Virus record (IMG/VR): IMGVR_UViG_3300015171_000003
DNA from: a virus
Taxonomy: Duplodnaviria > Heunggongvirae > Uroviricota > Caudoviricetes
Reading direction: 5' to 3' (one strand)
DNA: 64,000 nt
Both the position numbers and the translations under genes were made by a program. Under the pieces are notes generated by a model. It was not told the origin of the DNA, searched no databases, and saw only the letters and a list, made by a program, of their open reading frames with translations. Below are positions 18,191 through 56,131 of this stretch, in pieces; the stretch's first letter is position 1; each line of letters begins with the position of its first letter.

Positions 18191-18985
18191 TTATCTTTTA
18201 GGAATTAAATTTTGTAATCTTGTTGGATCTTTAGTAAATACCCAAGCAGGTTCTAATTGAAATGTTGGACGATTAACTTTTACAATTTCATTCTTATGAT
18301 TAATTGTTTCAATCTCTCTATCCTTTTTAGAAATAATTCTTCCAAATTTACATTTTGGGTCATAATTTTCCCAATCAATTATTTTTGCTTCTATCATTGG
18401 AATAATTTCTTCACAAGATTTATCCATTAATTCTTTGTGGGAATATAAAGATCTAGCTACCATTTGAACTGCATTTCTCATACAATCTCGATTCCTCCAA
18501 ACAACATTATTATAAACTTCAATCCAATCGGGAATTGAAAAAACTCTTGCGTCAAAATGTGCATATTCAAGAATTGTAATGTTGTGGTTATAAGCTTGAT
18601 TAACTCTATACTCATTAAATATAGCAGTAGCCATACTAGCACCTACACTAACAATTTTTTGAATATTACCACCAAACCATATTTGTGTTTCTTCTGATTG
18701 AATATCAGTAAACACAATAGTAATTTCATCTGATTGAACATATGATAATACAACACCTTGAATTTGTTTACAAAGTGTGATTGCTGTATGATCCATAGCT
18801 TCATTAAAATATTTGTCGAATGGTTTATCAAGTAATCTTGTATAAGAATGAAATGCTTTACCATCTATTCTTAAAATAAAATAATTATTCTTTGTAAGAT
18901 ATTGTCTATAAACATTCTCGTAACTTTTCATGCGATTTCCCAAAAGGTCTTCTTTCATTTGTTCTCCCAACACACATCTCTCCAT
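18191..18985 (-). CDS. Thg1-like protein (tRNA-His guanylyltransferase family)
   Basis: N-terminus KSYENVYRQY...YFILRIDGKAFHSYTRLLDKPFD matches the Thg1 KFEYVKxFE...RIDGRxFHKFT...KPND signature; the length (264 aa) also fits. Confidence 0.5.
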   Translation of the reverse strand: MERCVLGEQMKEDLLGNRMKSYENVYRQYLTKNNYFILRIDGKAFHSYTRLLDKPFDKYFNEAMDHTAITLCKQIQGVVLSYVQSDEITIVFTDIQSEETQIWFGGNIQKIVSVGASMATAIFNEYRVNQAYNHNITILEYAHFDARVFSIPDWIEVYNNVVWRNRDCMRNAVQMVARSLYSHKELMDKSCEEIIPMIEAKIIDWENYDPKCKFGRIISKKDREIETINHKNEIVKVNRPTFQLEPAWVFTKDPTRLQNLIPKR

Positions 18986-19917: not shown

Positions 19918-21162
19918 TTAATAACACTCAATCAAGTACTTAAGATTAATTTGATTTTCTTTATAAACAATCATTTCATCATTAAGAATACCAGAAATAT
20001 TTGGTTTAGCCCAACAAGAATGATATTTTCCACATTTTGGTAATGACTCACCATATTTTGGAATATATACATTACCCATTTCAATATCGGCCACAAATAA
20101 AAAGACATTATTAACTTTTGATTTTGACCAATATCCACAAGAATAATTTAATGATTTTGTAGAATCACTAGAAAAATACGCACCGTTTCCAAATAATTTT
20201 CCTGTAATATTTGCGGTAGATGGAGGAGAAATTTTTAATCCACTATTAAGAATCGAAAGAATATTAGCAACATTAGAACCATGCCATAATTCCATAATAT
20301 TTGATGGATTAATATTACATTCAGAAAAAGACTTCTTCATCTTATTAAGTTGAATTGTATAAATCTTTTTAATTTTCAAATGTTTAGAAGAATGATGTTC
20401 ATGCTTTTTAGTCTTTTCAAACTTAGTATTAATACGATTATATTCAGGAGAACTATTATCAAGAATATCCAAGGCGATATCCAAAAGAGAATCCTCCTGT
20501 TTTTTAGTAGAATCTGGTAATGGAGTTTTTGTAATAGTATTCCACGAAATTTCCAAGGAATCTAAAATATCCGACTGTTTCTTAATAAAATTCTTATCGC
20601 TGAACACACTTATATCAAATTTCTTCATCCCAAATGACTGTGGGACCAATCGGAGATATTGATTAACATCTTTTACCACAATCTTATTAAATAGATTGTC
20701 TAGGAGGCTCCTGGCTTCAGTAATAGAGTCTAACGTAATTATTCCCAATGGAGTTGTGAATAAATTGCTATTCTTATCATAAGAAATGTTTGTGGTAGAA
20801 ACAATATTATGAATATTTGTTTCAATTAGCAATTCAACAAGCTTATCAAGTTCTGAATTTTGAGAAGAAACCTTTTGCTTTACAATTTCTTTTAGATCCT
20901 TCTTTTGAATAGATACTGAAGAAATATTATCCTTAATTACTTTAAGTTCATGATACCCCTTTTTAATCTTTTCCTTAATCTTTTTTTCAAGAAAACGTTC
21001 GCCTCCGCGAGATGAATCATAAGTTTCGGTTTGTCCAGAATATCCTACACGACCATATTCAACATCAATCTTACCATCATCATGTAAAATAGCATTCCAA
21101 TACTTGTTGTGATTCGAATCAACATCCGAATTGATCAACTTAATTTCTCGCAAAATACTCAT
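19918..21162 (-). CDS. PARP-like protein: WGR domain plus poly/mono(ADP-ribose) polymerase catalytic domain
   Basis: N-terminus EYGRVGYSGQTE (WGR-like). C-terminus LWHGSNVANILSILNSGL...GKLFGNGAYFSSDSTKS...DEMIVYKENQINLKYLIE matches the PARP H-G-S / G-x-FGxGxYF / NEYIVY pattern. Confidence 0.6.
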   Translation of the reverse strand: MSILREIKLINSDVDSNHNKYWNAILHDDGKIDVEYGRVGYSGQTETYDSSRGGERFLEKKIKEKIKKGYHELKVIKDNISSVSIQKKDLKEIVKQKVSSQNSELDKLVELLIETNIHNIVSTTNISYDKNSNLFTTPLGIITLDSITEARSLLDNLFNKIVVKDVNQYLRLVPQSFGMKKFDISVFSDKNFIKKQSDILDSLEISWNTITKTPLPDSTKKQEDSLLDIALDILDNSSPEYNRINTKFEKTKKHEHHSSKHLKIKKIYTIQLNKMKKSFSECNINPSNIMELWHGSNVANILSILNSGLKISPPSTANITGKLFGNGAYFSSDSTKSLNYSCGYWSKSKVNNVFLFVADIEMGNVYIPKYGESLPKCGKYHSCWAKPNISGILNDEMIVYKENQINLKYLIECY

Positions 21163-22678: not shown

Positions 22679-23095
22679 TTATCCACCTTGATTTTTTATG
22701 TAGTTTTCTATCATTTTATCACATGCATCTCCAACAGAACAAACAAAGTAACCATCACTCCAAAATGTATTTTCTTTCCAGAAATGTTTCTTCAATAAAA
22801 TTTTATTAGTTTTCCATATTTGATAAGTACTTTGTTGTTTTAATTTCCTGATTATTTGGGTAATAGAAATCTTAGGATCATAACTAATTAATAAATGTAT
22901 ATGATTCGTTTCACTTTTAACTATTTCTATCAAAAAATCTCCTTTTATTAAATAAAAAGAATTAATTATTGTTTCATCTATTGTTTTGTACCTCAATAAC
23001 GGTTTTCTATATTTTATTGTCAAAATTATATGAGCTTTCATCAAAAATCTCCTTCTGTTTTTAGTAAAATACTTATTTTTATCACTTATTTTCAT
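22679..23095 (-). CDS. tnpA: IS200/IS605 Y1 (HuH) transposase TnpA
   Basis: HuH motif HIHLLIS, catalytic Tyr context STYQIW, and a length of 138 aa typical of IS200 TnpA. Confidence 0.8.
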   Translation of the reverse strand: MKISDKNKYFTKNRRRFLMKAHIILTIKYRKPLLRYKTIDETIINSFYLIKGDFLIEIVKSETNHIHLLISYDPKISITQIIRKLKQQSTYQIWKTNKILLKKHFWKENTFWSDGYFVCSVGDACDKMIENYIKNQGG

Positions 23096-23169
23096 ACTTT
23101 TTAAATTATTTTAACATTTTATATAGATTTCTCAATTAATTATACTAAATAACTATTATAGTAGATTAT

Positions 23170-24465
23170 ATGAAGTTAGAAAATCAAAGAATTTTAACAA
23201 AGAAAACCACGGCACTCCGAAGGAGTTCCATGGATGTTAAATGCTTTGAAACTAAAATTATAGAAAATAAATTGAAGAATAACCAATATAATAAATTAAA
23301 AGAAATCTATAAACAAGCAAAATATCTAGCTAATGATATTATTGGTTCTGATGATATCTTCGCTTACGATACTAAAATTAAACAAGTTAAAGTTCAATGG
23401 ACAGATAAAGATGGTGTTGAACAATCAGAGTTTAGAACCATTGAAGATCTAAATGCTCAAGTTAAACAATCTATTTTAACTGGTATCATTACTGATATAT
23501 GTAACTTAGCTAAAGCTAAGAAAAAAGGATTGAAAATAGGCAAATTGAAGTTTAAAAAAGAAATTGTTTTATTGAATTTTAAACAATATAAAGGTAATTG
23601 GTATATTAAATCTGGTAATAACCAACTACACCTAGCTGGTTTAGGTAAAATTAAAGTCTCAGGATTAGATCAACTCCCGAAGAATGTTACGGAATTTGGC
23701 CCTGCTAAATTAATCAGAAAACCCTCCGGTTACTACGTTCAAATAACATGTTACTCTAATAAACCAGAATTACCACAAATTAAAGAAGAAATTAATTCAA
23801 CAAATATAATTGGAATAGATATGGGTATTAAAGACCATATTGTTCTATCTAATGGGGAAAAATATAATTTTAATTATGATATTAAAAAGATTCAAAAGAG
23901 TCATCAAGAATTAAGTAGAAAAGTAAAAGGAAGTAAAAATAGATATAAACAATTATGGAGATTAAAGAAAAAATATGAAGAATTAATGAATAAGAAAGTT
24001 AATGATACTAACCAGTTTGTTAGTGATTTAACAAAGAGATTTAAATTAATATGTGTTCAAGATGAAAACATTAGAGGATGGAAAAGTGGTCTGTTTGGAA
24101 AACAGGTTCATGGATCAATATTAGGTAGGATAAAAAGCAAGCTTAATAAGCTTAGTACTACTTTAATTGTACCAATGAATAAACCAACTACTAAATTATG
24201 TCCTAAATGTGAGAAATTAAACATATTAAGTTTAAGTGATAGAACATATGAATGTAGTTGTGGATTTAAAGAGGATAGAGATATTAAATCAGCAAGAACA
24301 ATAGTTTGTATGGCTTTAAACAATTATGTACCTACGGAACGTAGGGAATTTACGCCTGTGGAGATTTTAACCTCTGGTTTAACTGATAAGTATGAACTAC
24401 TTTTTAGTGAAGCTAAGTTAGAATTGTTGAAACAGGAAGCCCATGAGTCTTTAGCTCATGGGTAG
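23170..24465 (+). CDS. tnpB: TnpB (OrfB_IS605) RuvC-like RNA-guided-nuclease family protein, apparently intact
   Basis: RuvC-I IIGIDMGIKD, RuvC-II LICVQDENIRGW, RuvC-III DRDIKSARTI, and zinc finger CPKCEKLN...YECSCG; the C-terminal codons are encoded by the right-end hairpin. Confidence 0.85.
   Translation: MKLENQRILTKKTTALRRSSMDVKCFETKIIENKLKNNQYNKLKEIYKQAKYLANDIIGSDDIFAYDTKIKQVKVQWTDKDGVEQSEFRTIEDLNAQVKQSILTGIITDICNLAKAKKKGLKIGKLKFKKEIVLLNFKQYKGNWYIKSGNNQLHLAGLGKIKVSGLDQLPKNVTEFGPAKLIRKPSGYYVQITCYSNKPELPQIKEEINSTNIIGIDMGIKDHIVLSNGEKYNFNYDIKKIQKSHQELSRKVKGSKNRYKQLWRLKKKYEELMNKKVNDTNQFVSDLTKRFKLICVQDENIRGWKSGLFGKQVHGSILGRIKSKLNKLSTTLIVPMNKPTTKLCPKCEKLNILSLSDRTYECSCGFKEDRDIKSARTIVCMALNNYVPTERREFTPVEILTSGLTDKYELLFSEAKLELLKQEAHESLAHG
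24440..24462 (+). repeat. IS right-end subterminal hairpin (8-bp stem, 7-nt loop) overlapping the tnpB stop
   Basis: Seen directly; it mirrors the left-end hairpin. Confidence 0.75.
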
Positions 24466-29037: not shown

Positions 29038-30288
29038 TTATAAAGAACTTAATTCTTGTTCTAATAAATGCAATATTTTTTCTGAAACTGTAGAATACCA
29101 AGCATCAGAGACAATATCTGTATTTGAATCGCCATTATGAAAAGCACCAATAGCATCACAATTAACCAAAGCTTTTAACAATTTAATAATTGATTCATTT
29201 ACTTTGACTTCATTTTTGATTTGAAGACCTTCATTAAGGTATATACGATATTTTTTAAGATCATTAGTTACAATTCTTTTAATTTCTGCTAAGTCAACTG
29301 TTGGGTTCATATTTTTATTATCAGTTAAATATCTATCTAATCCAGAATAATAGTGTGGATCTTGTTTAATTTTATTAATTGCTCTCGATTTGGCTTTTGT
29401 TTTTTCGGGAATTTCCATTCTTTCCATCTCATACTTAATACCCTGCAAAAGTTCGTCTTTATCTATTCCTGGAACATCAGTATCTTTATCATCAACCGTG
29501 TTATAATCGTATGAGATTACGTTTACAGGAGGAAAACTAGTTCTAGTATATGATACCTGTGGATCTGGTGTAGATGCTTGTCCTAGTGGTGCTGTAGCTC
29601 CACCAGCAGCACTTCCATATCCACCACCACCTAAGTTATATGCTAAATACTCTTTAATTGTCTCTTCTGGAACAGGATTTTTTGGATTTTGGGGAGTTAT
29701 TGGTTGTTCTGGCTCTGGAATTTTTGATTCTGGTTTTTCTTCTGGAGTTTCTTCTTTGTCGGGAACATCACTAACCTTCTTAAAATTAATCCATTGTTTT
29801 TTTGTTCCGGCTTCCCCAAATACACCTTTCTTAAATAAAAACTTTTTACCAAAAAATGTTCTATCTCCAATAAAATTGTCACCCATCCCCTTTTTGACAT
29901 AGGCTAATGTTAAATGTGGTTTATAGTCATTATACTTATTTTGATATGGTACTTTACTTCTTATTTCTTCATTCAATTTAGATAAAGCAGGACTATCAAT
30001 ATCTATTTTAATAACATCAAAATCATTATTATTATCAAATAAAGTAATTTCTTTTAGAACTATTTCTACTGGAAGAGTTTCTGAATAAATTTTCTTAACA
30101 GCATCTAAATATTTATTACTTTTAATTCCATAAAGAATTGTTATGTGAGATTCATATTCTTTTGGATCATCAATAACATCAGGGAAATCTGTGGCTAAAA
30201 TGTTATCAGGAATATTGTCATCAATATACTTCTTGAAAATGAAGTTGTTCTTAAAATAAATGGCGGAAATACAATCGTACATATCCAT
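29038..30288 (-). CDS. 2H phosphoesterase (LigT/CPDase-like) N-terminal domain fused to a large C-terminal region of unknown function
   Basis: Two HxT/Sx motifs (HITILYG and HLTLAYV) about 80 aa apart, followed by a Gly-rich linker and an unknown C-terminal region of about 200 aa. Confidence 0.55.
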   Translation of the reverse strand: MDMYDCISAIYFKNNFIFKKYIDDNIPDNILATDFPDVIDDPKEYESHITILYGIKSNKYLDAVKKIYSETLPVEIVLKEITLFDNNNDFDVIKIDIDSPALSKLNEEIRSKVPYQNKYNDYKPHLTLAYVKKGMGDNFIGDRTFFGKKFLFKKGVFGEAGTKKQWINFKKVSDVPDKEETPEEKPESKIPEPEQPITPQNPKNPVPEETIKEYLAYNLGGGGYGSAAGGATAPLGQASTPDPQVSYTRTSFPPVNVISYDYNTVDDKDTDVPGIDKDELLQGIKYEMERMEIPEKTKAKSRAINKIKQDPHYYSGLDRYLTDNKNMNPTVDLAEIKRIVTNDLKKYRIYLNEGLQIKNEVKVNESIIKLLKALVNCDAIGAFHNGDSNTDIVSDAWYSTVSEKILHLLEQELSSL

Positions 30289-32534: not shown

Positions 32535-32999
32535 TTACTTTTCATAGTACTTCAATTTCTTCGCAAGATCAATTAATTCTTCAAGTGAATCAACTTGTTT
32601 GATATTATAGTTTTCACAAACAATATCAACATTTCCTTTTTTCCAATATCCCTTTGGACAACAAACAATAATATTGAAATCATGACAATGAATTCCCAAT
32701 TCGAGTAAAGAAATTGGTGCCTTTGATTCTGGTGAGAAATAAAGTAGAATCCAATGACACTTATTCATTGCATTTAATTCCCAATTTACTTGTTCATTAA
32801 AATAAGAATCTTTTATATCTTCAACACAATCTTTCCAATCTAATCTTCTTGGATTTAATATAATACAATCTTCATCTTTAAGACCATTTGCTACTTTAGT
32901 TTGCCACTAAACAGCTTTTCCTTGATCTATTGATCCAGCAAGAAATAAAGAAATTTTATCTAATTTTGGAAGTTTATTAGGAGCGTATACAATTTTCAT
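32535..32999 (-). pseudogene. nucleoside 2-deoxyribosyltransferase-like gene interrupted by one in-frame TAG (codon 31, at 32907-32909). It is either a pseudogene or a read-through/recoded gene.
   Basis: Hand translation from ATG 32999 gives MKIVYAPNKLPKLDKISLFLAGSIDQGKAV*WQTKVANGLKDEDCIILNPRRLDW...NAMNKCHW, which runs in frame into track ORF 32535..32768. LFLAGS and SLLELG are NDT-family motifs. Confidence 0.45.
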
Positions 33000-35462: not shown

Positions 35463-35966
35463 TTAGTTTTTATTTAAATCGTATTCCATAATAATATTGT
35501 TTTCTCCATTATATTTTGCAACATCAATTTGATTCCACCCATGTTTTTTGTGATATGAAAAAGCATCTGTTGTGTCTAAATAAACTTTTTCAAATCCCAA
35601 AGATTTTACATAATCCAATCTTACTTTAGTTAATTTTTCTCCAAGTTTATTTCCTCTATATTTTGGTTCTACCCAAAGAAGAAAAAACCATGGAGAATAA
35701 TTAGGAACTTTATTCCAAGTTAAAGAAAACATTCCTGTTCCAATAGGATCTTTTTCTGTTTCTGTTCTAAGACAGAAAATTCTTTCACTAGTTTTTGTTG
35801 GAATAAAATTTTCAATTTCTTTATCAGCATCTTCTTTAGAATAATCCCACCTTATTTGTATAAGATTGGATAAATATGGAATATCTTTTTCTGTTGCTTT
35901 TGTTATAATAAAATCCATATTAATCCAATAAAGCTTTTCCAATAATAGGAGCAACACTATAAACAC
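35463..35966 (-). CDS. GNAT-family N-acetyltransferase
   Basis: Motif A YRGNKLGEKL; tandem with the previous GNAT. Confidence 0.6.
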   Translation of the reverse strand: MFIVLLLLLEKLYWINMDFIITKATEKDIPYLSNLIQIRWDYSKEDADKEIENFIPTKTSERIFCLRTETEKDPIGTGMFSLTWNKVPNYSPWFFLLWVEPKYRGNKLGEKLTKVRLDYVKSLGFEKVYLDTTDAFSYHKKHGWNQIDVAKYNGENNIIMEYDLNKN

Positions 35967-36873
35967 TCATAAATGAATGTCTACAATCAGAATATATCAT
36001 CTGAGCATATGTATTAGGATGTGTATTAGTCATTGCAATTTTATTGATTACATCATCTTTGTGTCCTGCTAACTTTTCATACCAACCTTTAGTGAGAACA
36101 CCATGACTCATTACAGCATAAATTTTATTAGCACCTTCTCTTTTATAAATTTCAGCAGCTTTAATCAAAGAAGATCCAGACCGCAACATGTCGTCATAAA
36201 TCACTACAATCTTATCCTTAACATCAGCATTAACTCCTGTGATGTCAGTACTAGATCCTGAATTACGTCGCTTATAACAGAAAGCAGACTCTATCTTATA
36301 ATCTTCTGAATAGGATCTAGATAAGTATTCAACATTCTTTGCTCTACCCACATCAGTTGTTGCAATAACATATTCTTTAGTTCCGGCAATTTCATTGCAC
36401 ATTTGTTGAATTAATGATGTTGTATTGATTTGTGAAGTGTATACACCTCCTTCAAAGAATTCTGTAATAACTGGGGTATGTAAATCCAAGAAATAAAATT
36501 TATTACCATAAGCTGCTCTTGGAATATTAGAAAGCATTGTTGCTCTAATTTTAGCAGCAATAATTTCACCATTCTTAGTTGCGCGTTCCATTGTGGCATA
36601 TCCATAATAAGGAATAACAATATTTAATCTCTTTGCTCCCATTGTAACTAATGTAGAACAAATACTAATCAATTCAACAATATCATCATTTGTTTGGGTC
36701 CCAGCTATTACACAACAAACTTCTCCATCTACTTGTTCTAAAATTCTAAGATAAATTTCTTGGTCTGGAAATTGTTCTCTTTCAATTTTCCCACATTTAA
36801 ATGAATTGGGATATTCCTTTAGAATCTCATCTTTGAGATAATCATATTTTTCAGTTGAAAATAATAATTTCAT
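35920..36873 (-). CDS. prs: ribose-phosphate pyrophosphokinase (PRPP synthetase) family protein; a PRPP synthetase and an ADP-ribose pyrophosphokinase (Adps-type) homolog cannot be told apart by eye
   Basis: C-terminal PRPP-binding region VIYDDMLRSGSSL...KIYAVMSHGV; 317 aa. Confidence 0.7.
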   Translation of the reverse strand: MKLLFSTEKYDYLKDEILKEYPNSFKCGKIEREQFPDQEIYLRILEQVDGEVCCVIAGTQTNDDIVELISICSTLVTMGAKRLNIVIPYYGYATMERATKNGEIIAAKIRATMLSNIPRAAYGNKFYFLDLHTPVITEFFEGGVYTSQINTTSLIQQMCNEIAGTKEYVIATTDVGRAKNVEYLSRSYSEDYKIESAFCYKRRNSGSSTDITGVNADVKDKIVVIYDDMLRSGSSLIKAAEIYKREGANKIYAVMSHGVLTKGWYEKLAGHKDDVINKIAMTNTHPNTYAQMIYSDCRHSFMSVYSVAPIIGKALLD

Positions 36874-36901
36874 AATTTTTTTCTATCTCTTCGTGCATCA
36901 A

Positions 36902-37108
36902 TCATAATTCATTTTCATTGATTGTTTTTTGCATAAAATATTTTTCAATAATATCTAAAATACAAGAGTCTTCATATACATGAATTGTTATTCCATTAAA
37001 TAAAAGATCAGATGTTTTATACTCAGAATCTTTTGCAATTTGTTTTACTCGAATAAATGCATTAAAAATATCTTCGCCTGTATTAGAATCATATAGTTCA
37101 TCACTCAT
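36902..37108 (-). CDS. hypothetical protein
   Basis: 68-aa ORF. Confidence 0.3.
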   Translation of the reverse strand: MSDELYDSNTGEDIFNAFIRVKQIAKDSEYKTSDLLFNGITIHVYEDSCILDIIEKYFMQKTINENEL

Positions 37109-37716
37109 AAATTTATATTATATTCTTTGATTTCACAATTTTGCGGAGTTTTCATTTTATCAAATTCAGATGGTGTTAATTTATTAATGTACATATCAAT
37201 TACATTCATTAAAAATCCATGAGTAACTAGTAAAATTGGACCGGAAATTTTTGTAGATAAATCGAAATTTCTCAAGTAATTAAAAAATGTTGTGACTCTT
37301 TGATAACAGTCCACTCCATTCTCACCATTTTTATACTTGAAATAGAATTTACTTCCATATTCTTTCAATTCATTAACATATTGTGGGAAATCAATTGAGT
37401 TATAAAAATAATAACAAGTATGTTCAATTAACAATGGATTAACTTCGAAATAATTAATATTAATATCAGCTTTTTTTAAATATAGTTCTAACAAATCAAA
37501 TGTCTGTACAGTTCTTAAATATGGTGAACAAAAAACATTTATATGGCTTATATCTTCACCAAAATTCTCAATTATTTTTGGAGCTTGTGTATGAAAATAT
37601 TCAATTCCTTCTACAGATAAAGGAACATTTTCATCTTTCATTGTGTCATAAACATGTTTATTATGTCCATTTGCAATACTTCTTGCGTGCCTTAATGTAA
37701 AAATAGGGACAATCAT
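37105..37716 (-). CDS. histidine phosphatase superfamily (PGAM-like) protein
   Basis: RHG-type motif LRHARSIANG near the N-terminus and a distal LVTHGFLM. Confidence 0.55.
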   Translation of the reverse strand: MIVPIFTLRHARSIANGHNKHVYDTMKDENVPLSVEGIEYFHTQAPKIIENFGEDISHINVFCSPYLRTVQTFDLLELYLKKADININYFEVNPLLIEHTCYYFYNSIDFPQYVNELKEYGSKFYFKYKNGENGVDCYQRVTTFFNYLRNFDLSTKISGPILLVTHGFLMNVIDMYINKLTPSEFDKMKTPQNCEIKEYNINL

Positions 37717-37982
37717 AAAACTGATTTCAAATATGGAGAATCCTTATATTCATCCAAACTCATTCCAAGTAACCATGGATGTACAACATTTAAAAAAGCT
37801 GGGTTACTAACAATCATTCTTGAAAATTCAAATCCACTAGGAATATAACTTCTACCAAAAAATTTATGTTCAAATAAATAATAAAATACATCTACATCCG
37901 TATCATAATCAGTCCAATATATCTTTCCTTGAATAACAGCAACCAATTTTCCTCTAAACAATTTCCTAAAAATATTTTTCAT
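37713..37982 (-). CDS. hypothetical protein
   Basis: 89-aa ORF. Confidence 0.3.
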   Translation of the reverse strand: MKNIFRKLFRGKLVAVIQGKIYWTDYDTDVDVFYYLFEHKFFGRSYIPSGFEFSRMIVSNPAFLNVVHPWLLGMSLDEYKDSPYLKSVL

Positions 37983-38707
37983 ATTAACCTTTTTAATGAA
38001 ATATTACAATAATCTTCATTTTTGTCAATCCCAATATAGTTTCTTCCCAAATTTTTTGCAGCTAAACATGTAGTGCCACTACCCATACAATTATCTAATA
38101 TCAATGCATTTTCATTAGAATATGATTTAATTAAATATTCCATTAATTCAATTGGTTTTTGGGATGGATGCAATCGTTTATCAGAATTATTATTAATATT
38201 ATTAATTTTTAATATAGAAGTAGGAAATCTTTCAGTAGACCCGCCTTCATTATACACAGAATTCACTTCGCCATATGTATTACTTTTATCAGTTCTTTTA
38301 CATGGATGTACTGGAGTATGTCCAGAAGTTTTTTGAGGATTAAATACTCCAAATTTTTTATAAAATACTAATATAGATTCGTGTTTTCTTAATGGTTGTT
38401 TGTTAGCATTTAAAAATCCCGTGGAATAATTCTTTTCCCATATTAAATCATATCTGAAATTCTTAATATTAGAAATAATTAATTTTGTTCTGAATGGTTC
38501 AATCGCAGTCAATATAACATTTCCTTTTAATTTAATTATTCTGTTGTAACTTTCCCACAATAAATCTAATGGAATCATAACATCCCATTCTTGTCTGGCA
38601 GTTGTTCCATATGGTAAATCACATAAAATTAAATCAATTGATTCATCTGGTATTTGTTTCATTAATTCTAAACAATCTCCGTGATATAATTTGTTAATTT
38701 CTAACAT
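37979..38707 (-). CDS. beta-class N6-adenine/N4-cytosine DNA methyltransferase (orphan)
   Basis: Motif IV DLPY near the N-terminus and motif I DNCMGSGTT near the C-terminus; no adjacent restriction endonuclease. Confidence 0.8.
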   Translation of the reverse strand: MLEINKLYHGDCLELMKQIPDESIDLILCDLPYGTTARQEWDVMIPLDLLWESYNRIIKLKGNVILTAIEPFRTKLIISNIKNFRYDLIWEKNYSTGFLNANKQPLRKHESILVFYKKFGVFNPQKTSGHTPVHPCKRTDKSNTYGEVNSVYNEGGSTERFPTSILKINNINNNSDKRLHPSQKPIELMEYLIKSYSNENALILDNCMGSGTTCLAAKNLGRNYIGIDKNEDYCNISLKRLI

Positions 38708-38708
38708 A

Positions 38709-39137
38709 TCAATGAACTGTATTCATTCTACGAATTACTTTATCAGCAATTTCTTTTGTTAATCCTTCTCTAATTTCAGTTTTAACTACAATATCTTCCA
38801 TCCAATCATCACTTATATCATCAATAGCAACATATCTGTCTGGTGCATACATCTTGATCCATGCATAGATCTCTACACCACGATCAACCCCCATCCACTT
38901 TCCATTATATTCTTTTCTCAAATCGGGTATACATCCAAATATAGTTCCTGTGAATCCATTAATCTTCAAAAGTTCTCTAAGTGCATCTACCCCATGACTA
39001 ATTCTCCAACTAGAAGAAACAACAACCATAGAATTTGTTTCATGTACAATTCTATTAAGCTGTTCTATACATTCTGGAAGCCAATATCCTTTAGGTGTAT
39101 TTAAAACCCCGTCAAAATCTAAAAATATAATATTCAT
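38709..39137 (-). CDS. HAD-like phosphatase (PNK-phosphatase / 5'-nucleotidase-like)
   Basis: Motif I IFLDFDGVLNT. Confidence 0.5.
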   Translation of the reverse strand: MNIIFLDFDGVLNTPKGYWLPECIEQLNRIVHETNSMVVVSSSWRISHGVDALRELLKINGFTGTIFGCIPDLRKEYNGKWMGVDRGVEIYAWIKMYAPDRYVAIDDISDDWMEDIVVKTEIREGLTKEIADKVIRRMNTVH

Positions 39138-39149
39138 ATGATATTTTAT

Positions 39150-39569
39150 CTATTCACAATCTTTAAATTTTTCTCTTAATTCCAAGTATTTTTGATATTC
39201 ATCACTTTTCTTTTTTTCTTTAATTTTCTCATCCATTTCTTCTGCTAAAGCATCTTCTTTCTTTTTAAGATCCAGTTTATTTTTAACAATATCGTTAACA
39301 TTTCTCCATAAATTTGACAAATCAAAAAGATGACAATCATTAACATAGTCTCCAATATTACTGAAAATTATTTCTCCATAACAAAGAATTGTAAATTGCA
39401 AATCTTGTGTAGATTTATTTTTTAAAATTTCATTTTCAAATTCAAATTGAGAAATTTTTTCAACAAGAGAATTAAATTCATCTGTTTGAAATATTTCTCC
39501 AAATGAGATGCTTATATTACTTCCATCATAATAGCCATCGGGTCTATATACAAAAACAGTGTATTTCAT
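39150..39569 (-). CDS. hypothetical protein, tandem paralog of 39584..39910
   Basis: Both start MKYT(V/L)F(V/Y)YR and share the GEIFQ(T/S) motif. Confidence 0.4.
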   Translation of the reverse strand: MKYTVFVYRPDGYYDGSNISISFGEIFQTDEFNSLVEKISQFEFENEILKNKSTQDLQFTILCYGEIIFSNIGDYVNDCHLFDLSNLWRNVNDIVKNKLDLKKKEDALAEEMDEKIKEKKKSDEYQKYLELREKFKDCE

Positions 39570-39583
39570 AAAATAATGATATA

Positions 39584-39910
39584 TTAATTGTTATAATAAT
39601 TTTTATAATTTTTAAATACCTCATAATTAATTCTATCATATAAATTTTTTAAAGTCAAAAAATATTCATCAGAAAGATCTTCTTTAATATAATCACCATC
39701 AATCTCAGTACAAACTATTTGGGCATCAAACATTATTGTAATATCAGATACCGCAATTTCTGGTCCACTATTCATATTTTCACATTTAATCTCAATAATC
39801 TTATTTGTAAATTCTTCAAAATTTAAACTCTGAAAAATTTCTCCTTCGGAATTACTGGATTTATCTTCACAAGAACAATTCTTTCTATAATAAAATAATG
39901 TGTATTTCAT
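39584..39910 (-). CDS. hypothetical protein, tandem paralog of 39150..39569
   Basis: See 39150..39569. Confidence 0.4.
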   Translation of the reverse strand: MKYTLFYYRKNCSCEDKSSNSEGEIFQSLNFEEFTNKIIEIKCENMNSGPEIAVSDITIMFDAQIVCTEIDGDYIKEDLSDEYFLTLKNLYDRINYEVFKNYKNYYNN

Positions 39911-39918
39911 ATTTTTAA

Positions 39919-40887
39919 TTATTTTACAATAATTTTTGACATATTTTTAAACAACATATTAAGCAAAACATGGTGTTCCTTAACAATTAATTCTTCACCC
40001 GCACCATTGCGACAAAGATCATCAAAATCAAACCATTTAACTTCGGAGATGTCATCTGATGCTTGAGGTCTACCAAATAACAATTTACAATAGAAAAATG
40101 CAGTTTTAATACAATCTTCTCCATCTTTAGGGTATCTCCAGTCCAAAATTTTAGTACTTCCAATATAAACAGGATCACTAATTTCACATAATCCAGTTTC
40201 CTCCATCACTTCTCTTTTAGCATCATCTTCCAAAGAATTACTTCTAGGGTCACTAAAACCTCCAATAAATCTATGTTTATCTTCCTTTGGTTTCTTACCA
40301 AGAAGAATCTTAGTAAAGTCTTCATTAAAGATTGCTACATCTACAGTTTGATAAGCAGTAGGATATCTACTCTGAGTAGAATAAATCACGCCTGCCCTGA
40401 ATTCTGGCGAAGCAATGGTCTTTGCAGATATAGTCTTGCGCATCTCAGTTCCAGAAACAAAAACATCGCTTTCTAATTCAATTGTTTTATTTTTTCCATT
40501 ATAATATTGAATAAAACTATCTCTACTTCCATATAAAGTTATTGTTTGGCCGGGATTTAAATGTTTTGAAATTTGATCATCTAAATTTTTACTCCAATCA
40601 GAATCATCTTTGACATCATTAATATAATGAATCTCCAAATCATCTTTGGGAAATTCTTCGATTAACATTTGTTTGCGAGCATTAAAATCTAATGGATTCT
40701 TTTTTGTGTTTCTTACTTCACTCAATCCCAAAAAAATAATAACTCTTTTGTGATTATTAATTACAGTTTGAATTAATTTTCTATGAGCGTCATGTAATTT
40801 ATGCACTTGCATTCTACAAACCAATCCACCAACAACAGTATTTTCTTTTACTTCTTCCTTAACCTTCAATACATTTTTAGTAGTCAT
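39919..40887 (-). CDS. nadM: bifunctional NMN adenylyltransferase / Nudix hydrolase (NadM-Nudix, NatV-like)
   Basis: N-terminal nucleotidyltransferase motif RMQVHKLH (compare NadM RFQPFHKGH) and C-terminal Nudix box GGFSDPRSNSLEDDAKREVMEETGL. Confidence 0.65.
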   Translation of the reverse strand: MTTKNVLKVKEEVKENTVVGGLVCRMQVHKLHDAHRKLIQTVINNHKRVIIFLGLSEVRNTKKNPLDFNARKQMLIEEFPKDDLEIHYINDVKDDSDWSKNLDDQISKHLNPGQTITLYGSRDSFIQYYNGKNKTIELESDVFVSGTEMRKTISAKTIASPEFRAGVIYSTQSRYPTAYQTVDVAIFNEDFTKILLGKKPKEDKHRFIGGFSDPRSNSLEDDAKREVMEETGLCEISDPVYIGSTKILDWRYPKDGEDCIKTAFFYCKLLFGRPQASDDISEVKWFDFDDLCRNGAGEELIVKEHHVLLNMLFKNMSKIIVK

Positions 40888-40888
40888 A

Positions 40889-42289
40889 TTATTTTAATTC
40901 TGCGTTTTTACGAATATCTTCAAATTTTTGATCAATCAATAATTCGCCATTTTCATAAACAGTTACTAATTGATCTTCAAGTTCTGGATATTGATCTTCA
41001 TTAACAGTAGTATATACTCCATCAATAATAACCAACTTCAAACGACCTTTTTTACTTATCTTTCCCTGATCTGTAATTGGATCTTTATAAACATCTCTAC
41101 CTTCGCCACCAACCTTTGCCCAACAGCATTTTGTCGCAAATTTTAATGTATCTCTATTTAAATCCTGCAAAAGTTTTCCACCACAGCCAAACAAAATATT
41201 GTCTGTACTATATCCACTATTAGTAATATTATCTAAAATATCTCCAATCGATTTGTAATTAACAGAGTCTCCATAAATAACACCAACCTTTGGATTTAAT
41301 GTTTTATAACCCTTTTCATTTACAGTCGTTCCGAAATATTTTTCAAGATTTTGAATTACTTCAAGACTCATTTTCACAGGATCTCCACTATCTGGGCGAA
41401 CAACCAATTTTGCAAATCCCGTCTTTTGTCCACGAGCAAGAATTTTATCTTTGAGAGTAGTTCCAAACATTTTGATTGCTTCGTAAATGTTATAAGAATC
41501 ACTTACCAAAGAAATAATTCCTTCTGGACATTCATCAATAAATGTTTCATACGCTTTACACTCATTTTCCCTACCATAAATAGTAGTTGTGCTATGTTCC
41601 GTAGCAAATACAGAATGTCCGCACACCCCACTATTATAGTATCCCATAGCAAGTTTAATCCCCGCAAAATTATCTGTTCCCAAGAAATTTATTAAATGTG
41701 CTGCTCCTCCAAGACCAGCACTTTCGGGAGAACTAACACCTCTAAATCCAAAATCATTTAAATGAAATGGACTAAGTTTACATCCAGTTTTATCAGCATA
41801 AGTCTTAATTCTCTCTTTAATTTTTCTACTAAGAGTTGCTACTGTTGTCGGATACCAAACTTCAAGCAATAGTGTTTCAAGAAAATTTGTTAGCCAAGGA
41901 ACTTTTTCATCAGTATTTTCAATAGTAAACAAAACATTTTTAGTAGGAACAACCGAACCTTCTATTACGGATTTTATTCGAATAGGCAGAGCACCTTCAT
42001 ATTTGTTAAGGATATATTCCCAACCTTCTCTGTTAAAAAAATCTTTTGTTCCAAATACTTGTTGACAAAACTCATCAGCTTCATCAATAAATTTTTGATT
42101 TACAATTTTTCCACTCAAATAATTCTTTAAAAAATATTGTAGTCCAAAGAATACAGTATAATCAAAAACTCCTCCCCTAGATTCTAAATAAGAATATACA
42201 ATTTGTGTGTTTTTGGGGTACTGCCTGAAATGGCACATTTTATAAGCATCACTATTTAAAATAGCATTATCAAATACATTCTTCATCAT
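40889..42289 (-). CDS. nadV: nicotinamide phosphoribosyltransferase (NAMPT/NadV)
   Basis: ILNSDAYKMCHFRQYPKNTQIVYSYLESRGG matches the NAMPT N-terminal signature (LLATDSYKVTHYKQYP...VYSYFE); 466 aa. Confidence 0.85.
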   Translation of the reverse strand: MMKNVFDNAILNSDAYKMCHFRQYPKNTQIVYSYLESRGGVFDYTVFFGLQYFLKNYLSGKIVNQKFIDEADEFCQQVFGTKDFFNREGWEYILNKYEGALPIRIKSVIEGSVVPTKNVLFTIENTDEKVPWLTNFLETLLLEVWYPTTVATLSRKIKERIKTYADKTGCKLSPFHLNDFGFRGVSSPESAGLGGAAHLINFLGTDNFAGIKLAMGYYNSGVCGHSVFATEHSTTTIYGRENECKAYETFIDECPEGIISLVSDSYNIYEAIKMFGTTLKDKILARGQKTGFAKLVVRPDSGDPVKMSLEVIQNLEKYFGTTVNEKGYKTLNPKVGVIYGDSVNYKSIGDILDNITNSGYSTDNILFGCGGKLLQDLNRDTLKFATKCCWAKVGGEGRDVYKDPITDQGKISKKGRLKLVIIDGVYTTVNEDQYPELEDQLVTVYENGELLIDQKFEDIRKNAELK

Positions 42290-44478: not shown

Positions 44479-44517
44479 TTTAATATTTTATATTAAATAA
44501 ATAAAAAAGTCAATAAT

Positions 44518-44985: not shown

Positions 44986-44991
44986 ATGATT

Positions 44992-45297
44992 TTATTCATA
45001 ATTATTTTCTATATATAACAAAAGTTCTGGAATATGATTGTCAATAATTATGTTTAGTGCAATATCTTTCATATCTCTATGTCGTATTAACATGAATTCA
45101 AAAAACCTTTTCATTTGAAATACACAATTAATTAAATTTTGTTTTAATGAAACACCATTATAAAAAACTATAATTTCAAATTTTTTATTAACAATTTCTT
45201 CTTTTATTGTAAAAAGAGCCTCCAAATTTCTTTTTCTTATATATAAATAATATTCTCTATAATCATTTATCTCTGTTGTAGTCATATATTTTTCCAA
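44992..45297 (-). CDS. hypothetical protein
   Basis: 101-aa ORF. Confidence 0.35.
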   Translation of the reverse strand: MEKYMTTTEINDYREYYLYIRKRNLEALFTIKEEIVNKKFEIIVFYNGVSLKQNLINCVFQMKRFFEFMLIRHRDMKDIALNIIIDNHIPELLLYIENNYE

Positions 45298-45560
45298 TCC
45301 TCACCATTTTCATTTTTAATAACCCAATCATTTCCTAAATGAATTCCATCAGAAGATTTAAATTTTACTGTTTCTGAAAAAATGTCACCGCCTATTGATA
45401 TAACATTTCCATTAGGATCGCATGTTCCCCAAGACCCAATAACTTTGTGATCCCCATATCTTTCTAAAACAGTTTCTCCACCAGTAAATATTGGTTTGGG
45501 GGTTCTATTAAATAAATTATAGAAATATGTCTTTACTTTATTAAATATATTTTTCATCAC
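45282..45560 (-). CDS. hypothetical protein
   Basis: 92-aa ORF. Confidence 0.35.
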   Translation of the reverse strand: MMKNIFNKVKTYFYNLFNRTPKPIFTGGETVLERYGDHKVIGSWGTCDPNGNVISIGGDIFSETVKFKSSDGIHLGNDWVIKNENGEDWKNI

Positions 45561-46087
45561 AAATTTTTATATAAAATTTTATCATTTAAATGAAAAGATA
45601 TTTTATCTGAAGAAATTCCTTTGTCAATTAATTCTTGTGTCGTTCCAAGTAATATAAACCCATTTTTAATATAAAAATTTTCAGAAGTATCTGTAAACAA
45701 ATATAAATTTTTTGCGTTATTATTAATTTCTTTTAATTTTTTAATAGCTAGAGATAATATCATACTACCAAATCCTTTTTTCTGATATTGTTTTTTTACT
45801 CCAAACCAAGAAAGCCAATCAACTAACTCATTTTCTTTTAAAATGTGATTGTATAACCCGAATGTTCCAATTAATGTTTCTCTAAACCTATTTCCAACAA
45901 TTAATGTTTTATCATAGACCAAATATTGTTTCCGATAATCTCCAAATTTTAATTTCTTTTCTAAAATTCCACAATATTTTGCCATTGACAAAATAAAACG
46001 ATCATGATCCTTTCCAAAATTAATATTTTTTATTAAAGAAACATAATCTTCAAAATCTTTAGATTCTTTTATTATAAAATTATTCAC
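45557..46087 (-). CDS. GNAT-family N-acetyltransferase
   Basis: Motif A QKKGFGSMIL. Confidence 0.55.
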   Translation of the reverse strand: MNNFIIKESKDFEDYVSLIKNINFGKDHDRFILSMAKYCGILEKKLKFGDYRKQYLVYDKTLIVGNRFRETLIGTFGLYNHILKENELVDWLSWFGVKKQYQKKGFGSMILSLAIKKLKEINNNAKNLYLFTDTSENFYIKNGFILLGTTQELIDKGISSDKISFHLNDKILYKNL

Positions 46088-46880
46088 AACAATTTTTCAA
46101 ATTTAAATACAACTCATTCATTTTAATATCATCTTTCACAATGCCGCTCATTTGTCCATCATTTATTTCTATCAGTATCCAATCACCTGCTTGTGTTTTT
46201 GCAATATCAATTACAAAGAAATCAACATGGTCAGAAATAATATCAGCAATCTTTTTTGCAAATGACATTCCTTCATCATCTAATAATCCAACTTTTTCAC
46301 TATTTGACCAATAGAAAAAATTAGTAAGCATTGTCTTTTTATAAAAGAAAAATCTGTGTTCATTAGAGAATGGAAGTCCACTTATAGAAATTTCCAAATT
46401 TTCTAATGGAACAAAATCTCTAACAATAATTCCTTGACTAGAAATCATAGGATCATCCATCAATTCATGATAAACATCAACAACTCTTTTATATCCTTTT
46501 GCAAACATTTTAGTGTTCCACTTATGTTTAGAGGAATTTGTCCTTCCTTTGACCACAAAAGATTTATCTTCATCCTTTGGAACTTCAACTAAATTAAAAT
46601 AAGTTTTTGGAGTAAAATCCTTTACATGTTCATAATAATCAAAATTGGCAATGTAAGTATGTTAACTAAATGTATTAATCAATTGACATCCATGTTTTAT
46701 CAAGTCAATCTCTAATTCTTTGTAAAATGGCCGAACGGAATATCTCCCAATAACTAATTGCTTTTTACAATCTATTCTACTATTGACTACTTCAAAATAT
46801 TTCTTGGCAACAAAATATTCTTTATCTGCTTCATAGATATTATCTACAAGATTTCTGTATAGTATAATTGGAGATTTCAT
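46080..46880 (-). pseudogene. ATP-grasp enzyme gene interrupted by one in-frame TAA (at 46662-46664). It is either a pseudogene or a read-through gene.
   Basis: Track ORFs 46662..46880 and 46080..46556 are in the same frame, and the 35 codons between them have no other stop. The inter-ORF codons encode the ATP-grasp P-K-T / FVVKGRTNSS lysine region; the C-terminal part is WILIEINDGQMSG; the downstream track start is GTG. Confidence 0.5.
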
Positions 46881-48094
46881 TCAAATATTTCATTTTTACA
46901 AACTACTAATTCATTTGATCTATTCAACCATTTATTAATCTTCAAGGTAAAACAACCAAATTCAAATTCACCAAGATGATCATCAACAGTAGAACCAGCT
47001 TCAATAACATTCTTTGTCATATTAACAATCTCATTAAAATATTCTTTGAACTTACTTCTAAACTGATTCATGTCAATCGTCAATTCAATATCATGTGGTT
47101 GAATATCTTTTATTGATTTTACTCTCGTTGTTAAATCCCATTTAGTATGTGGTTGTTCCATTTTAATATATTCACTTAATAATTCATCATTATCTAAATA
47201 AATTGTACTACAAAATTGTTCTGTGTTGTATACAATATTTAAATCTTCTTGTTTACATCCTACTAAATTAAATGATATATCAAATACGTGAGGAATTATG
47301 GGGCGAGACTCATTGTCTATCATGACCCAATTATGCCAACGCCTAAGATAATTTCTAGTCGATTGTGTTTGTTTATATTTAAATTCATCTGTGTCATTAC
47401 CTATGCCAGTTTTTGCCCATCCACGATGCGCCCGACATGTCCAATGAAAAACTGTGGCACTCCAAATTTGCTGGATATTATAACCAGCTAAAATAAATCT
47501 TTGAAACAAGTCGCTATCTTCTGTAGGATATCCGTAAGGCCAGTGACCTCCTATCTTAATCATATCTTCAACAAATATCATCCATGGAGCAAATATTCCT
47601 GTTGTGATTTTATTTTTGTTTTCTTCAATTAATTTTTTTGAATAATCTATAAAAGCAGTTTCATTAAAATCTATAGCAGTCATACCAAAATTTTTAATAA
47701 TTTTTGCTGAATCTTTGGGATGTATAGGCGGCTCAATACGAGTCCCACTACAAACTCTACCACGAATCATGTGTTTAGAAAGTTGATTTATATAATCAAA
47801 TCCAGAACACATATCAGAATGAAAAATAGTACCTATTTCATTTTTTGCCATTTTAAATCCAATATCATATAACTTGGGATGTCCAATATGTGGTTCATTA
47901 AATCTCTTATATATCAAATTAGGATCATCTTTTATACTTTCAAAAAAAGATTGTGTGTCATCATCAGAATTATCATCCAAAACAATTATTTCGTGATCTT
48001 TAGAATTATATTTTCTTAAAGAATTATATGCTATTTTTACAAAAGAATCCGTATTCCATGTAGGCATTATTATACTAACTTTAATATCACTCAT
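46877..48094 (-). CDS. family-2 glycosyltransferase (GT-A fold) with a large C-terminal domain
   Basis: VSIIMPTWNT...EIIVLDDNSDDDT. Confidence 0.6.
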   Translation of the reverse strand: MSDIKVSIIMPTWNTDSFVKIAYNSLRKYNSKDHEIIVLDDNSDDDTQSFFESIKDDPNLIYKRFNEPHIGHPKLYDIGFKMAKNEIGTIFHSDMCSGFDYINQLSKHMIRGRVCSGTRIEPPIHPKDSAKIIKNFGMTAIDFNETAFIDYSKKLIEENKNKITTGIFAPWMIFVEDMIKIGGHWPYGYPTEDSDLFQRFILAGYNIQQIWSATVFHWTCRAHRGWAKTGIGNDTDEFKYKQTQSTRNYLRRWHNWVMIDNESRPIIPHVFDISFNLVGCKQEDLNIVYNTEQFCSTIYLDNDELLSEYIKMEQPHTKWDLTTRVKSIKDIQPHDIELTIDMNQFRSKFKEYFNEIVNMTKNVIEAGSTVDDHLGEFEFGCFTLKINKWLNRSNELVVCKNEIFE

Positions 48095-48107
48095 TACTTA
48101 TTTTTCT

Positions 48108-48407
48108 TCATTCATAATATGTTACTACTTTTGTTTTTTGAAATACTTCAGTCCAATCATTATGCCATTCTGTTCCGTCCCAAGAATTGTAATATCCCGT
48201 TGTTTGTACATAAATAAAATTATTTTGTTGGTCGATTATTTTAAAAACTGCATACATATTATCCACACCACCTTCTTCTCCAATATATCCATCCACAAAT
48301 TCAATTTGATAATCTCCCAATTTTATACTTTTTGCTTTCGTACCCCAGACAAAATCACTAATTGATCCAACTTTTTTAAGCAATCCAATAATTTCTTGTT
48401 TATTCAT
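48108..48407 (-). CDS. hypothetical protein, tandem paralog of 48410..48742
   Basis: Shared Y..(S/T)(S/G)YY(N/S)SWD..(E/D)W..(D/E) core. Confidence 0.4.
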   Translation of the reverse strand: MNKQEIIGLLKKVGSISDFVWGTKAKSIKLGDYQIEFVDGYIGEEGGVDNMYAVFKIIDQQNNFIYVQTTGYYNSWDGTEWHNDWTEVFQKTKVVTYYE

Positions 48408-48409
48408 AA

Positions 48410-52349: not shown

Positions 52350-52916
52350 TTATAATTCAGTTAAAATTTTTTCTCTAGCATTCCCCAACGCAATTCCCAA
52401 CCAATTAGTCCCCCATTTATCCTTTTCATTAAAAACATTTACATCATCTTCAAGATAACCAATACCCCAAATTCTATCATATGGAGAAGCTTCAATTAAA
52501 ATATATGGATCAGTTAAAATAATAAGTTCTTTAAATTTATCATTGCTAATAAATTTTTTGTAATTTGAATATGAAACAAAATTCACAACATTTTCTTCCC
52601 AAACAGATTGGTCAAAGTTTTTTACTTTTTTACCCAAAGCTTTTTGATCTTTTGGTGATGTTGATTGTAAAATTTTCTGAAAAGATTCTTCATCATTAAA
52701 AACACTTGCTTTATATAACATCATTGCTTGTTCAGCGCAATTTACTCTATATTCAGAATTATTAATTGTTACTGTATATAAACATGGATGCCATTGAGAA
52801 AATATCCCATTCCAAAAAAGAATAGATTTTTCTTCTGGATATAATGTGGCATCTAAAGATTTAATTTTGATTTTTCTCATGATTTTAATTTTACAATAAT
52901 TAATTATTTTGATCAA
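52350..52916 (-). CDS. NADAR (DUF1768/YbiA-like) domain protein
   Basis: ILFWNGIFSQWHP...NCAEQAMMLYKA...PKDQKALGKKV...LIEASPYDRIWGIGY matches the NADAR consensus FFWGG..SNF...E..fq..K.....P.......W......L.E..p.D..WG.G. Confidence 0.55.
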   Translation of the reverse strand: MIKIINYCKIKIMRKIKIKSLDATLYPEEKSILFWNGIFSQWHPCLYTVTINNSEYRVNCAEQAMMLYKASVFNDEESFQKILQSTSPKDQKALGKKVKNFDQSVWEENVVNFVSYSNYKKFISNDKFKELIILTDPYILIEASPYDRIWGIGYLEDDVNVFNEKDKWGTNWLGIALGNAREKILTEL

Positions 52917-55585: not shown

Positions 55586-55693
55586 ATTTTTTGTTTTTTG
55601 TTATTGGTTTATTTAATTTATCCCATGTTTTTATATAAAAATTTTTAACTTTAGAATTAACGATCAAATCTCTATTTAATTTTCTATTCTTAA

Positions 55694-56131
55694 TTAGATG
55701 GACAACATCAGCAAAATCTTGAACTCGTTCTGTTTTTTTTTTAAAAATGTTGCAAGTTTCATTGAAATTAAATCTTCAATATTTGCTATAATTGGGGTTG
55801 GTGAAACTTTTTTTGGAACTGGATAATTTAATAATGAAGGTCCTACAGATTTACCCCCCGGCAATAAATCAATAATATAATCTGGATTTTCTCTATCTAC
55901 TAATTGCATCGTCGTTCCTCTAACTTCTTTAAATCCATTCATTGATAATTTATCTCTAGCATATTCAATGTCTGGGACAACAACATTTAAATCAATTGTG
56001 GTTCTGGCATAGCCATTACGTTGCACAGCATATCCACCATAAAATATATGAGGAATTTTAAACATTGCCAAAATCTTTGTTAATTTATTTGCTATCTTAT
56101 CCAATGGTATTCCCATAGATTCTTGGATCAA
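55694..56131 (-). CDS. possible nucleotidyltransferase-fold protein (LicD/MNT-like)
   Basis: FYGGYAVQRNGYARTTIDLNVVV resembles GxxxGxxRxxxxxxxDhD; the track start is TTG and the ATG is at MGIPLDK. Confidence 0.3.
   Translation of the reverse strand: MIQESMGIPLDKIANKLTKILAMFKIPHIFYGGYAVQRNGYARTTIDLNVVVPDIEYARDKLSMNGFKEVRGTTMQLVDRENPDYIIDLLPGGKSVGPSLLNYPVPKKVSPTPIIANIEDLISMKLATFLKKKQNEFKILLMLSI

Follow-up and report, generated by a model that had tools for sequence, protein, structure and literature searches.

An in-frame ochre codon divides an R2K-type ATP-grasp gene of a large AT-rich phage

The DNA studied here is a stretch of 64,000 nucleotides from the IMG/VR virus record IMGVR_UViG_3300015171_000003 (Caudoviricetes), which we refer to in its full length as the window; its source is a large AT-rich phage. 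Two neighbouring open reading frames (ORFs) on the minus strand of this window, one of 72 and one of 158 amino acids (aa), are two parts of a single gene for an ATP-grasp enzyme that is interrupted by one premature TAA codon. We consider it probable that this stop is a young nonsense (ochre) mutation in an accessory gene of the R2K clade of ATP-grasp ligases. The evidence for a single gene, the likely origin of the stop, the explanations that compete with a mutation and the place of the gene in its family and its genome are described below.

One gene interrupted by one stop codon

The gene extends from 46880 to 46080 on the minus strand as a single reading frame of 266 codons, in which the sole in-frame TAA (46664..46662, in the context AGT TAA CAT) is codon 73. 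The N-terminal piece consists of codons 1-72 (46665..46880), begins with the ATG at 46880..46878 and corresponds to the listed ORF 46662..46880 (72 aa). It is followed, after codon 73, by a gap of 35 sense codons (46557..46661; residues 74-108, HTYIANF...EDKSF) in which there is no stop and no ATG, GTG or TTG. The C-terminal piece, codons 109-266 (46083..46556), corresponds to the listed ORF 46080..46556 (158 aa), which opens with a GTG (46556..46554, codon 109) and closes with the regular terminal TAA of the gene. Past codon 73 the same frame holds 193 sense codons up to that terminal TAA (46082..46080). The earliest in-frame ATG after the premature stop is codon 125 (46508..46506), and the GTG at codon 109 has no Shine-Dalgarno-like motif nearby. 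Because no ATG, GTG or TTG is found among them, the 35 gap codons are translatable only by read-through of the TAA. A first-pass annotation, made from the sequence alone, had reported the shared frame, the single in-frame TAA, the 35 codons free of stops and the lack of an ATG near the start of the downstream piece; on re-reading, its coordinates were correct and each of these statements proved true.

ORFs overlap one another in succession around this gene. At its start, the ATG shares bases with the TGA of the upstream GT2 glycosyltransferase gene (ATGA). At its end, a downstream GNAT acetyltransferase ORF (45557..46087, minus strand), which opens with a GTG at 46087..46085, overlaps the gene by 8 nt, terminal stop included.

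A search of 5.8 billion proteins with the joined sequence returned 455 matches, the best of which had an E value of 3e-101 and 63% identity. Among the 120 matches listed of these 455, nearly all were single proteins 256-290 aa long that matched 90-100% of the joined query, and in an alignment of 38 sequences the stop occupied one column without any indel. A chance juxtaposition of two genes was ruled out, given that the joined sequence matched 455 proteins and nearly all of the listed ones were uninterrupted. With the stop masked, the joined sequence matched two Pfam models, R2K_3 (PF14243; E 4e-18, 66.5 bits against a gathering cut-off of 26.3) and R2K_2 (PF18299; E 6e-12, 46.1 bits against a gathering cut-off of 26.2). 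The PF14243 match fell almost wholly within the 158-aa ORF, which by itself was also recognized as an R2K domain (E 8.5e-18), and the 72-aa piece had no Pfam match of its own. The product had been assigned beforehand to the ATP-grasp enzymes, with RimK, GshB and ATP-grasp_4 as the families named; the enzyme class stands, and the family is the R2K clade (PF14243/PF18299) instead of those three.

The AlphaFold2 model of the joined 266 aa, for which the 38-sequence alignment served as input, was a single compact fold (predicted local distance difference test, pLDDT, 95.1; predicted template modelling score, pTM, 0.91). Three domains are combined in the one chain of the model: a pre-ATP-grasp domain at the N terminus, a RAGNYA domain in the centre and a kinase/PIPK-like domain at the C terminus. 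When PDB chains were searched with a family profile, no sequence match was found even at E <= 10, and the fold comparison was therefore made with the predicted model. Foldseek aligned the joined model with full-length DcsG, ArgX/LysX, DdlB, RimK and synapsin, with a probability of 1.00, an E value of about 1e-9, a template modelling (TM) score of about 0.55-0.64 and ~300 aligned columns, so that single ATP-grasp templates are matched across the stop. The proposal that the two ORFs form one ATP-grasp gene with a premature TAA is borne out by homologs that cross the stop without an indel and by this single, confidently modelled fold. In the model, codons 1-72 comprise essentially the whole pre-ATP-grasp domain (strands 3-7 and 41-44; helices 20-28 and 53-62), gap residues 74-108 supply the helices of the linker and lead into the first strand of the RAGNYA domain, and codons 109-266 make up the catalytic module, which consists of the central RAGNYA domain and the kinase-like C-terminal domain.

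The predicted catalytic residues were located with the motif definitions of Burroughs, Zhang and Aravind (2015; PMC4431377). Every one of them is present, and all lie within codons 109-266. On the minus strand these are K111, the strand-2 Lys (46550..46548); K118, the second Lys in the following loop (46529..46527; K111-G-R-T-N-S-S-K118); E174 and R176 of the ExR motif (E174-x-R176 in NEHRFFF; 46361..46353); D225, the Asp in strand 4 of the kinase-like domain (46208..46206); and E238-x-N240 (E238-I-N240; 46169..46161) at the end of the last conserved strand. All of these residues are invariant in the 38-sequence alignment. The linker residues 74-106 contain no invariant Lys, T90 being the sole invariant residue there and F80 and Y83 nearly invariant, and the linker Lys of classical ATP-grasp enzymes thus appears to be absent from this protein.

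The 35 gap codons had been taken in the first-pass annotation for the most conserved ATP-grasp segment, with the ATP-binding Lys strand among them. Neither statement was upheld. The mean frequency of the top residue was 0.58 over residues 74-108 (4 columns at least 90% conserved), compared with 0.76 over residues 109-125 (8 such columns) and 0.75 over residues 219-247 (13 such columns), and the Lys strand, VVKGRTNSSKHKW (VVKGRTNSSK, with K111 and K118), is inside the 158-aa ORF. The four best-conserved segments of 15 aa begin at residues 234, 43, 165 and 107. The second best-conserved stretch of the family, residues 43-57 (VIGRYSVRPFYKELE), is found in the N-terminal piece.

Origin of the stop codon and its expected consequences

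We compared 82 related loci by tblastn, comprising 80 IMG/VR contigs, LR745208.1 and one Logan contig. The site of codon 73 is occupied by Gln at 50 of these loci, by Glu at 23, by Asp and Asn at 3 each, by His at 2 and by Ala at 1, and no stop fell within the tblastn match at any of the 82, one of which (L087) was matched in two segments. The same site encodes Gln in 60 and Glu in 46 of 116 database homologs, and Gln in the two closest relatives. No split at this site was seen in the 82 loci or in the 120 homologs listed; of two short database homologs, one is truncated by the end of its contig and the other begins at the equivalent of residue 51, and neither breaks at the site. In the window, CAA makes up 82% of the Gln codons and GAA 87% of the Glu codons. 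TAA is one substitution away from both of these dominant codons, so that one base change, C-to-T or G-to-T, is enough to explain the stop. About 40% of the sense codons of the window, and 100 of the 265 in the ATP-grasp gene, are one substitution from a stop, and AT-rich genomes are a large target for such nonsense events.

Most of the homologs are found on phage contigs that are large or huge (40-570 kb), among them LR745208.1 with 485 kb. When 16 neighbouring proteins of the window were compared by tblastn with all fetched loci, no recurring neighbour was found, and neither the GNAT gene nor any other neighbour in the window recurred beside the 80 viral homologs examined. One syntenic relative, the ENA metagenome scaffold L003, encodes NAMPT, PRPP synthase and NDT-like proteins that are 81%, 82% and 78% identical to those of the window. 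No close ortholog of the ATP-grasp gene was found in the 20 kb of L003 that were fetched, and no database match exceeded 63% identity. Judged from this distribution, the ATP-grasp gene appears to be dispensable and patchy. A megablast search of positions 44000-50000 against 50,697 GenBank phage records had no match, and thus no nucleotide-level relative was found there; an exact-protein look-up found no identical protein to the adjacent GT2 on record, and a 46-mer that spanned the stop, its first stop base set to N, had no match in viral, metagenome and genome contig collections. Neither reads nor another assembly of this phage turned up in the collections searched.

If the stop arose by mutation, a single substitution would have turned codon 73 into the ochre TAA, most likely through a C-to-T transition from CAA (Gln), with GAA (Glu) as the alternative starting codon. 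Translation from the ATG, which the ATGA overlap couples to the upstream glycosyltransferase, would then end after 72 residues, and the product released would be the non-catalytic pre-ATP-grasp domain alone. The 193 downstream codons contain all of the catalytic residues but lack a usable start near the stop. The enzyme would thus not be made, save for a trace that basal UAA read-through may yield. Early termination may, in addition, make translation of the GNAT ORF less tightly coupled to that of the gene. We infer that the stop reflects a true mutation instead of an error in the consensus, and that it abolishes the function of the gene, which would then have become a pseudogene very recently or be a knock-out allele that is fixed in the population sequenced. 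Like ordinary nonsense pseudogenes, such as the ochre and amber alleles of non-essential phage genes, it has a single stop of one-step origin in an otherwise intact, dispensable gene, and no feature in the present data distinguishes it from them.

Counting the ATP-grasp gene, at least three accessory genes in the 64 kb would be sporadically damaged. The second is an NDT-like gene (32999..32535, minus strand; PF15891, E 2e-26), in which the in-frame TAG already noticed in the first-pass annotation is indeed present, at 32909..32907 (codon 31). This site encodes Asp in most homologs and Asn or Arg in a few, and it is GAT in the closest relative (P0121 / L003, 78% identical). TAG differs from GAT at two bases, which makes a single miscall unlikely there. 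The NDT-like copy has also lost one residue and is altered at several places of the DWDSSW region. The third is a frameshifted ORF for an AbiEii-like nucleotidyltransferase (about 55600..56131, minus strand), which ends in ...KLATFLKKKQNEFKILLMLSI followed by a stop and, across ten consecutive A (A10; 55733..55742), resumes as ...TERVQDFADVVHLIKNRKL... in the -1 frame. When joined, the sequence matched AbiEii weakly over the junction, with an E value of 0.0015 that does not reach the Pfam cut-off. One continuous protein would be restored if the run had eleven or eight A, if the ribosome slipped by -1 on A_AAA_AAA, or if slippage occurred in transcription. The break may accordingly be a true indel, a case of slippage by the ribosome or during transcription, or a sequencing error in the homopolymer.

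In the comparison with L003, which is syntenic over about 15 kb, the NDT-like gene was the sole disrupted gene. An apparent stop in the match of the NMNAT/NUDIX protein to L003 was rejected as a further case, for it lies two codons upstream of the window ATG at 40887 and reflects a shorter N-terminus without disruption. The overall picture is one of sporadic inactivation of dispensable accessory genes with no systematic recoding. The first-pass annotation had raised the question of read-through or recoding versus ongoing decay for these interrupted genes; the pattern fits sporadic inactivation or base errors.

Genetic code and alternative explanations

Several observations weigh against loss of the gene by mutation. 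First, the copy shows no further decay. None of the 36 invariant columns of the 38-sequence alignment is altered in it; among the 54 columns with a conservation of 90% or more it departs from the consensus at 1, as does the median intact homolog; and downstream of the stop it departs at 3 of the 60 columns with a conservation of 80% or more, the median of intact homologs being 5. This absence of other damage is expected of a very recent mutation, and equally of a sequencing or consensus error or of efficient suppression; because the copy has no further damage, the stop should be very recent, or a base error, or suppressed. Second, tRNAs with a CTA anticodon, of the amber-suppressor type and reported by ARAGORN as 'tRNA-Pyl', are encoded on two contigs with homologs of the gene (L002, 8845..8919; L009, 3596..3666), at about 1.1 kb (L002) and 2.3 kb (L009) from those homologs, and one of these contigs carries the closest homolog (P0001). 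Suppressor tRNAs therefore exist in phages carrying this ATP-grasp family. Third, our tRNA scan covered the 64 kb window, and any tRNA genes would be located in the part of the genome beyond it.

One alternative, which we regard as unlikely, is that the TAA is an error of sequencing, assembly or consensus calling, or a minority allele taken as the consensus, and that the real phage has CAA or GAA at codon 73 and a functional gene. This would agree with a gene that is otherwise indistinguishable from its intact homologs, and the break of the AbiEii-like gene in an A10 homopolymer, where sequencing errors classically occur, indicates that the assembly may contain errors. However, consensus substitution errors are rare in comparison with homopolymer indels, and the two-base difference between the NDT-like TAG and the GAT of its closest relative is beyond a single miscall.

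The remaining alternatives depend on the genetic code of the phage. Of the terminators of 127 ORFs in the window, 75 were TAA (59%), 40 TGA and 12 TAG. Coding density was 91.7% in code 11, and 88.8%, 92.3% and 90.8% when TAA, TAG and TGA, respectively, were read as sense. Global recoding was rejected on the basis of this stop usage and of the coding density under the four codes; the code in the window is the standard one, with no reassignment. ARAGORN found no tRNA gene in the 64 kb. The 111 nt around and after the premature stop fold more weakly than shuffled sequences (z +1.6), and no RNA structure that might stimulate read-through was found there. The contigs L002 and L009 showed no gain in coding density over the stretches searched with TAG as sense, and their CTA-anticodon tRNAs would read UAG, not UAA. 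A Thg1-like tRNA-His guanylyltransferase is encoded in the window (18191..18985, minus strand; PHROG 4717, E 5e-76) and a CCA-adding enzyme in the relative L003 (11189..12628), and together they suggest that a phage tRNA set lies elsewhere in the genome.

No reassignment of TAA is known in phages. The recoded phages described in PMC11210395 have a coding density of ~67-70% in code 11, and the stops reassigned in them are TAG and TGA, with TAA not mentioned. The window shares with recoded phages (Crassvirales and Lak megaphages, with TAG to Gln in table 15 or TGA to Trp in table 4) the occurrence of in-frame stops inside conserved phage genes, and suppressor-type tRNAs are present on some of the contigs with homologs of the ATP-grasp gene. 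Those phages, however, have many in-frame stops, which are TAG or TGA, and a low density in code 11, whereas the window has a density of ~92%, no gain from reassignment, TAA as its main terminator, and only one in-frame TAA and one TAG.

It is accordingly improbable that the stop is decoded, whether by an ochre suppressor tRNA (UUA, probably Gln-derived) encoded outside the window or by host-dependent read-through, perhaps as a throttle on expression. A UUA suppressor would read both UAA and UAG and would thus also rescue the TAG-interrupted NDT-like gene. Consistent with such decoding, the ATP-grasp and NDT-like genes both keep all family-invariant residues, the TAA stands where most homologs have Gln, the CTA suppressor-type tRNAs lie close to homologs in L002 and L009, and the Thg1-like and CCA-adding enzymes make a tRNA set elsewhere plausible. 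Nevertheless, efficient ochre suppression would extend most proteins of a phage in which TAA ends 59% of the ORFs, coding density falls when TAA is sense, the window has neither a tRNA nor a stimulatory RNA structure after the stop, and no other homolog examined has the stop. Moreover, the NDT-like TAG aligns with Asp or Asn and not with Gln, and the phage reassignments in PMC11210395 concern TAG and TGA. The read-through or recoding option of the first-pass annotation thus drew no support from stop usage, coding density, the tRNA scan of the 64 kb or the RNA fold. If the stop were decoded after all, it would represent ochre suppression in a phage with TAA as its main terminator, for which we found no positive support here. 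We consider very improbable the particular case in which a natural ochre suppressor (UUA) derived from tRNA-Gln, encoded outside the window, partially reads this UAA and the UAG of the NDT-like gene, so that both enzymes are made at a low level or in a suppressor-dependent manner; were it true, it would be the first functional UAA read-through for regulation in a phage with UAA as its main terminator.

Finally, a deliberate split into a 72-aa domain and a separately initiated C-terminal fragment (from GTG 109 or ATG 125), acting together or separately, is extremely improbable: although the stop lies at a domain boundary of the model and the 158-aa ORF alone scores as an R2K domain, the 35 codons without a start would mean the loss of the helices of the linker and of the segment that leads into the first RAGNYA strand, the codon-109 GTG has no Shine-Dalgarno-like motif at a working distance, promoter-like sites were no commoner than in shuffled sequences, with no terminators found, and none of the 82 loci or 120 homologs listed breaks at the codon-73 site. 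A young nonsense mutation remains the reading that we prefer.

Family placement and genomic context

The R2K clade of ATP-grasp ligases and its motifs were defined by Burroughs, Zhang and Aravind (PMC4431377). Its members have a second conserved Lys or Arg in the loop just after the strand-2 Lys, which replaces the linker Lys of classical ATP-grasp enzymes, the arrangement taking the place of both the glycine-rich loop and the linker Lys of classical members. In the same study, the R2K.3 family carries ExGD in place of ExN, and the R2K.2 family is equated with the old DUF4343 model. The copy in the window and its homologs have ExN followed by D-G (IEINDGQMSG) and lack the ExGD of R2K.3, and despite the Pfam label 'R2K_3' the protein looks like a better fit to the phage-associated R2K.2 (DUF4343) of PMC4431377. 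R2K families are predicted to attach amino acids or peptides to proteins during conflict between phage and host, and a linked GNAT may cap the product (PMC4431377, PMC7824862); no tested substrate is reported for the phage and bacterial R2K.2 and R2K.3 families, whose functions are predictions in both papers. Linkage of R2K and GNAT genes is described in some bacteria (PMC4431377), and R2K versions in jumbo phages (PMC7824862).

The gene studied here resembles the R2K clade in its significant Pfam match, its three-domain fold, its two Lys, ExR, Asp and ExN, its sporadic occurrence in large phages and, in this window, the GNAT gene directly downstream. It differs in that this copy is cut by a TAA at codon 73, whereas no other examined member is interrupted. 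LysX/ArgX, RimK, D-Ala-D-Ala ligase and DcsG are the best structural matches of the joined model, but their sequence identity to it is only 9-15%. The biochemical role that we infer for the intact enzyme is that of a predicted ATP-dependent carboxylate-amine ligase, presumably with the same chemistry as those ligases, in which an acyl-phosphate intermediate is followed by an amide bond. With at most 63% identity to the databases searched, the copy is a divergent member of a phage and bacterial ATP-grasp family that has already been described. As it stands the finding matters little, its main use being annotation: the 72-aa and 158-aa ORFs should be recorded as one interrupted gene, and the 158-aa piece should not be recorded as a stand-alone R2K enzyme.

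The window has a G+C content of ~27% and a coding density of ~92%, and its small, densely packed genes are mostly on the minus strand. They include phage-family genes and accessory genes typical of phages. PHROGs identified a helicase, a DNA-polymerase-like protein, a DNA methyltransferase and the Thg1-like enzyme. The window also encodes an IMPDH/GMP-reductase-like protein, glycosyltransferases, an FkbM methyltransferase, NUDIX and GNAT proteins, a pyrimidine-dimer glycosylase and a TnpB.

Genes of NAD and ADP-ribose metabolism form a cluster on the minus strand, at 35920..42289, 19918..21162 and 52350..52916. It contains NAMPT (40889..42289), an NMNAT-like and NUDIX protein (39919..40887) and a PRPP-synthase-like protein (35920..36873), all three syntenic with L003, as well as a PARP catalytic domain with a WGR domain (19918..21162), NADAR (52350..52916) and a 2H-phosphoesterase or Acb1-like protein (29038..30288). 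We take these genes to resemble the NAD+ reconstitution and counter-defence gene sets of phages.

An IS200/IS605-type element lies within the phage genome at 22679..24465, in one of the few plus-strand islands of the window. It comprises a TnpB/OrfB_IS605 gene (23170..24465, plus strand; PF01385, PF07282) and, adjoining it, a small TnpA-looking ORF (22679..23095, minus strand).

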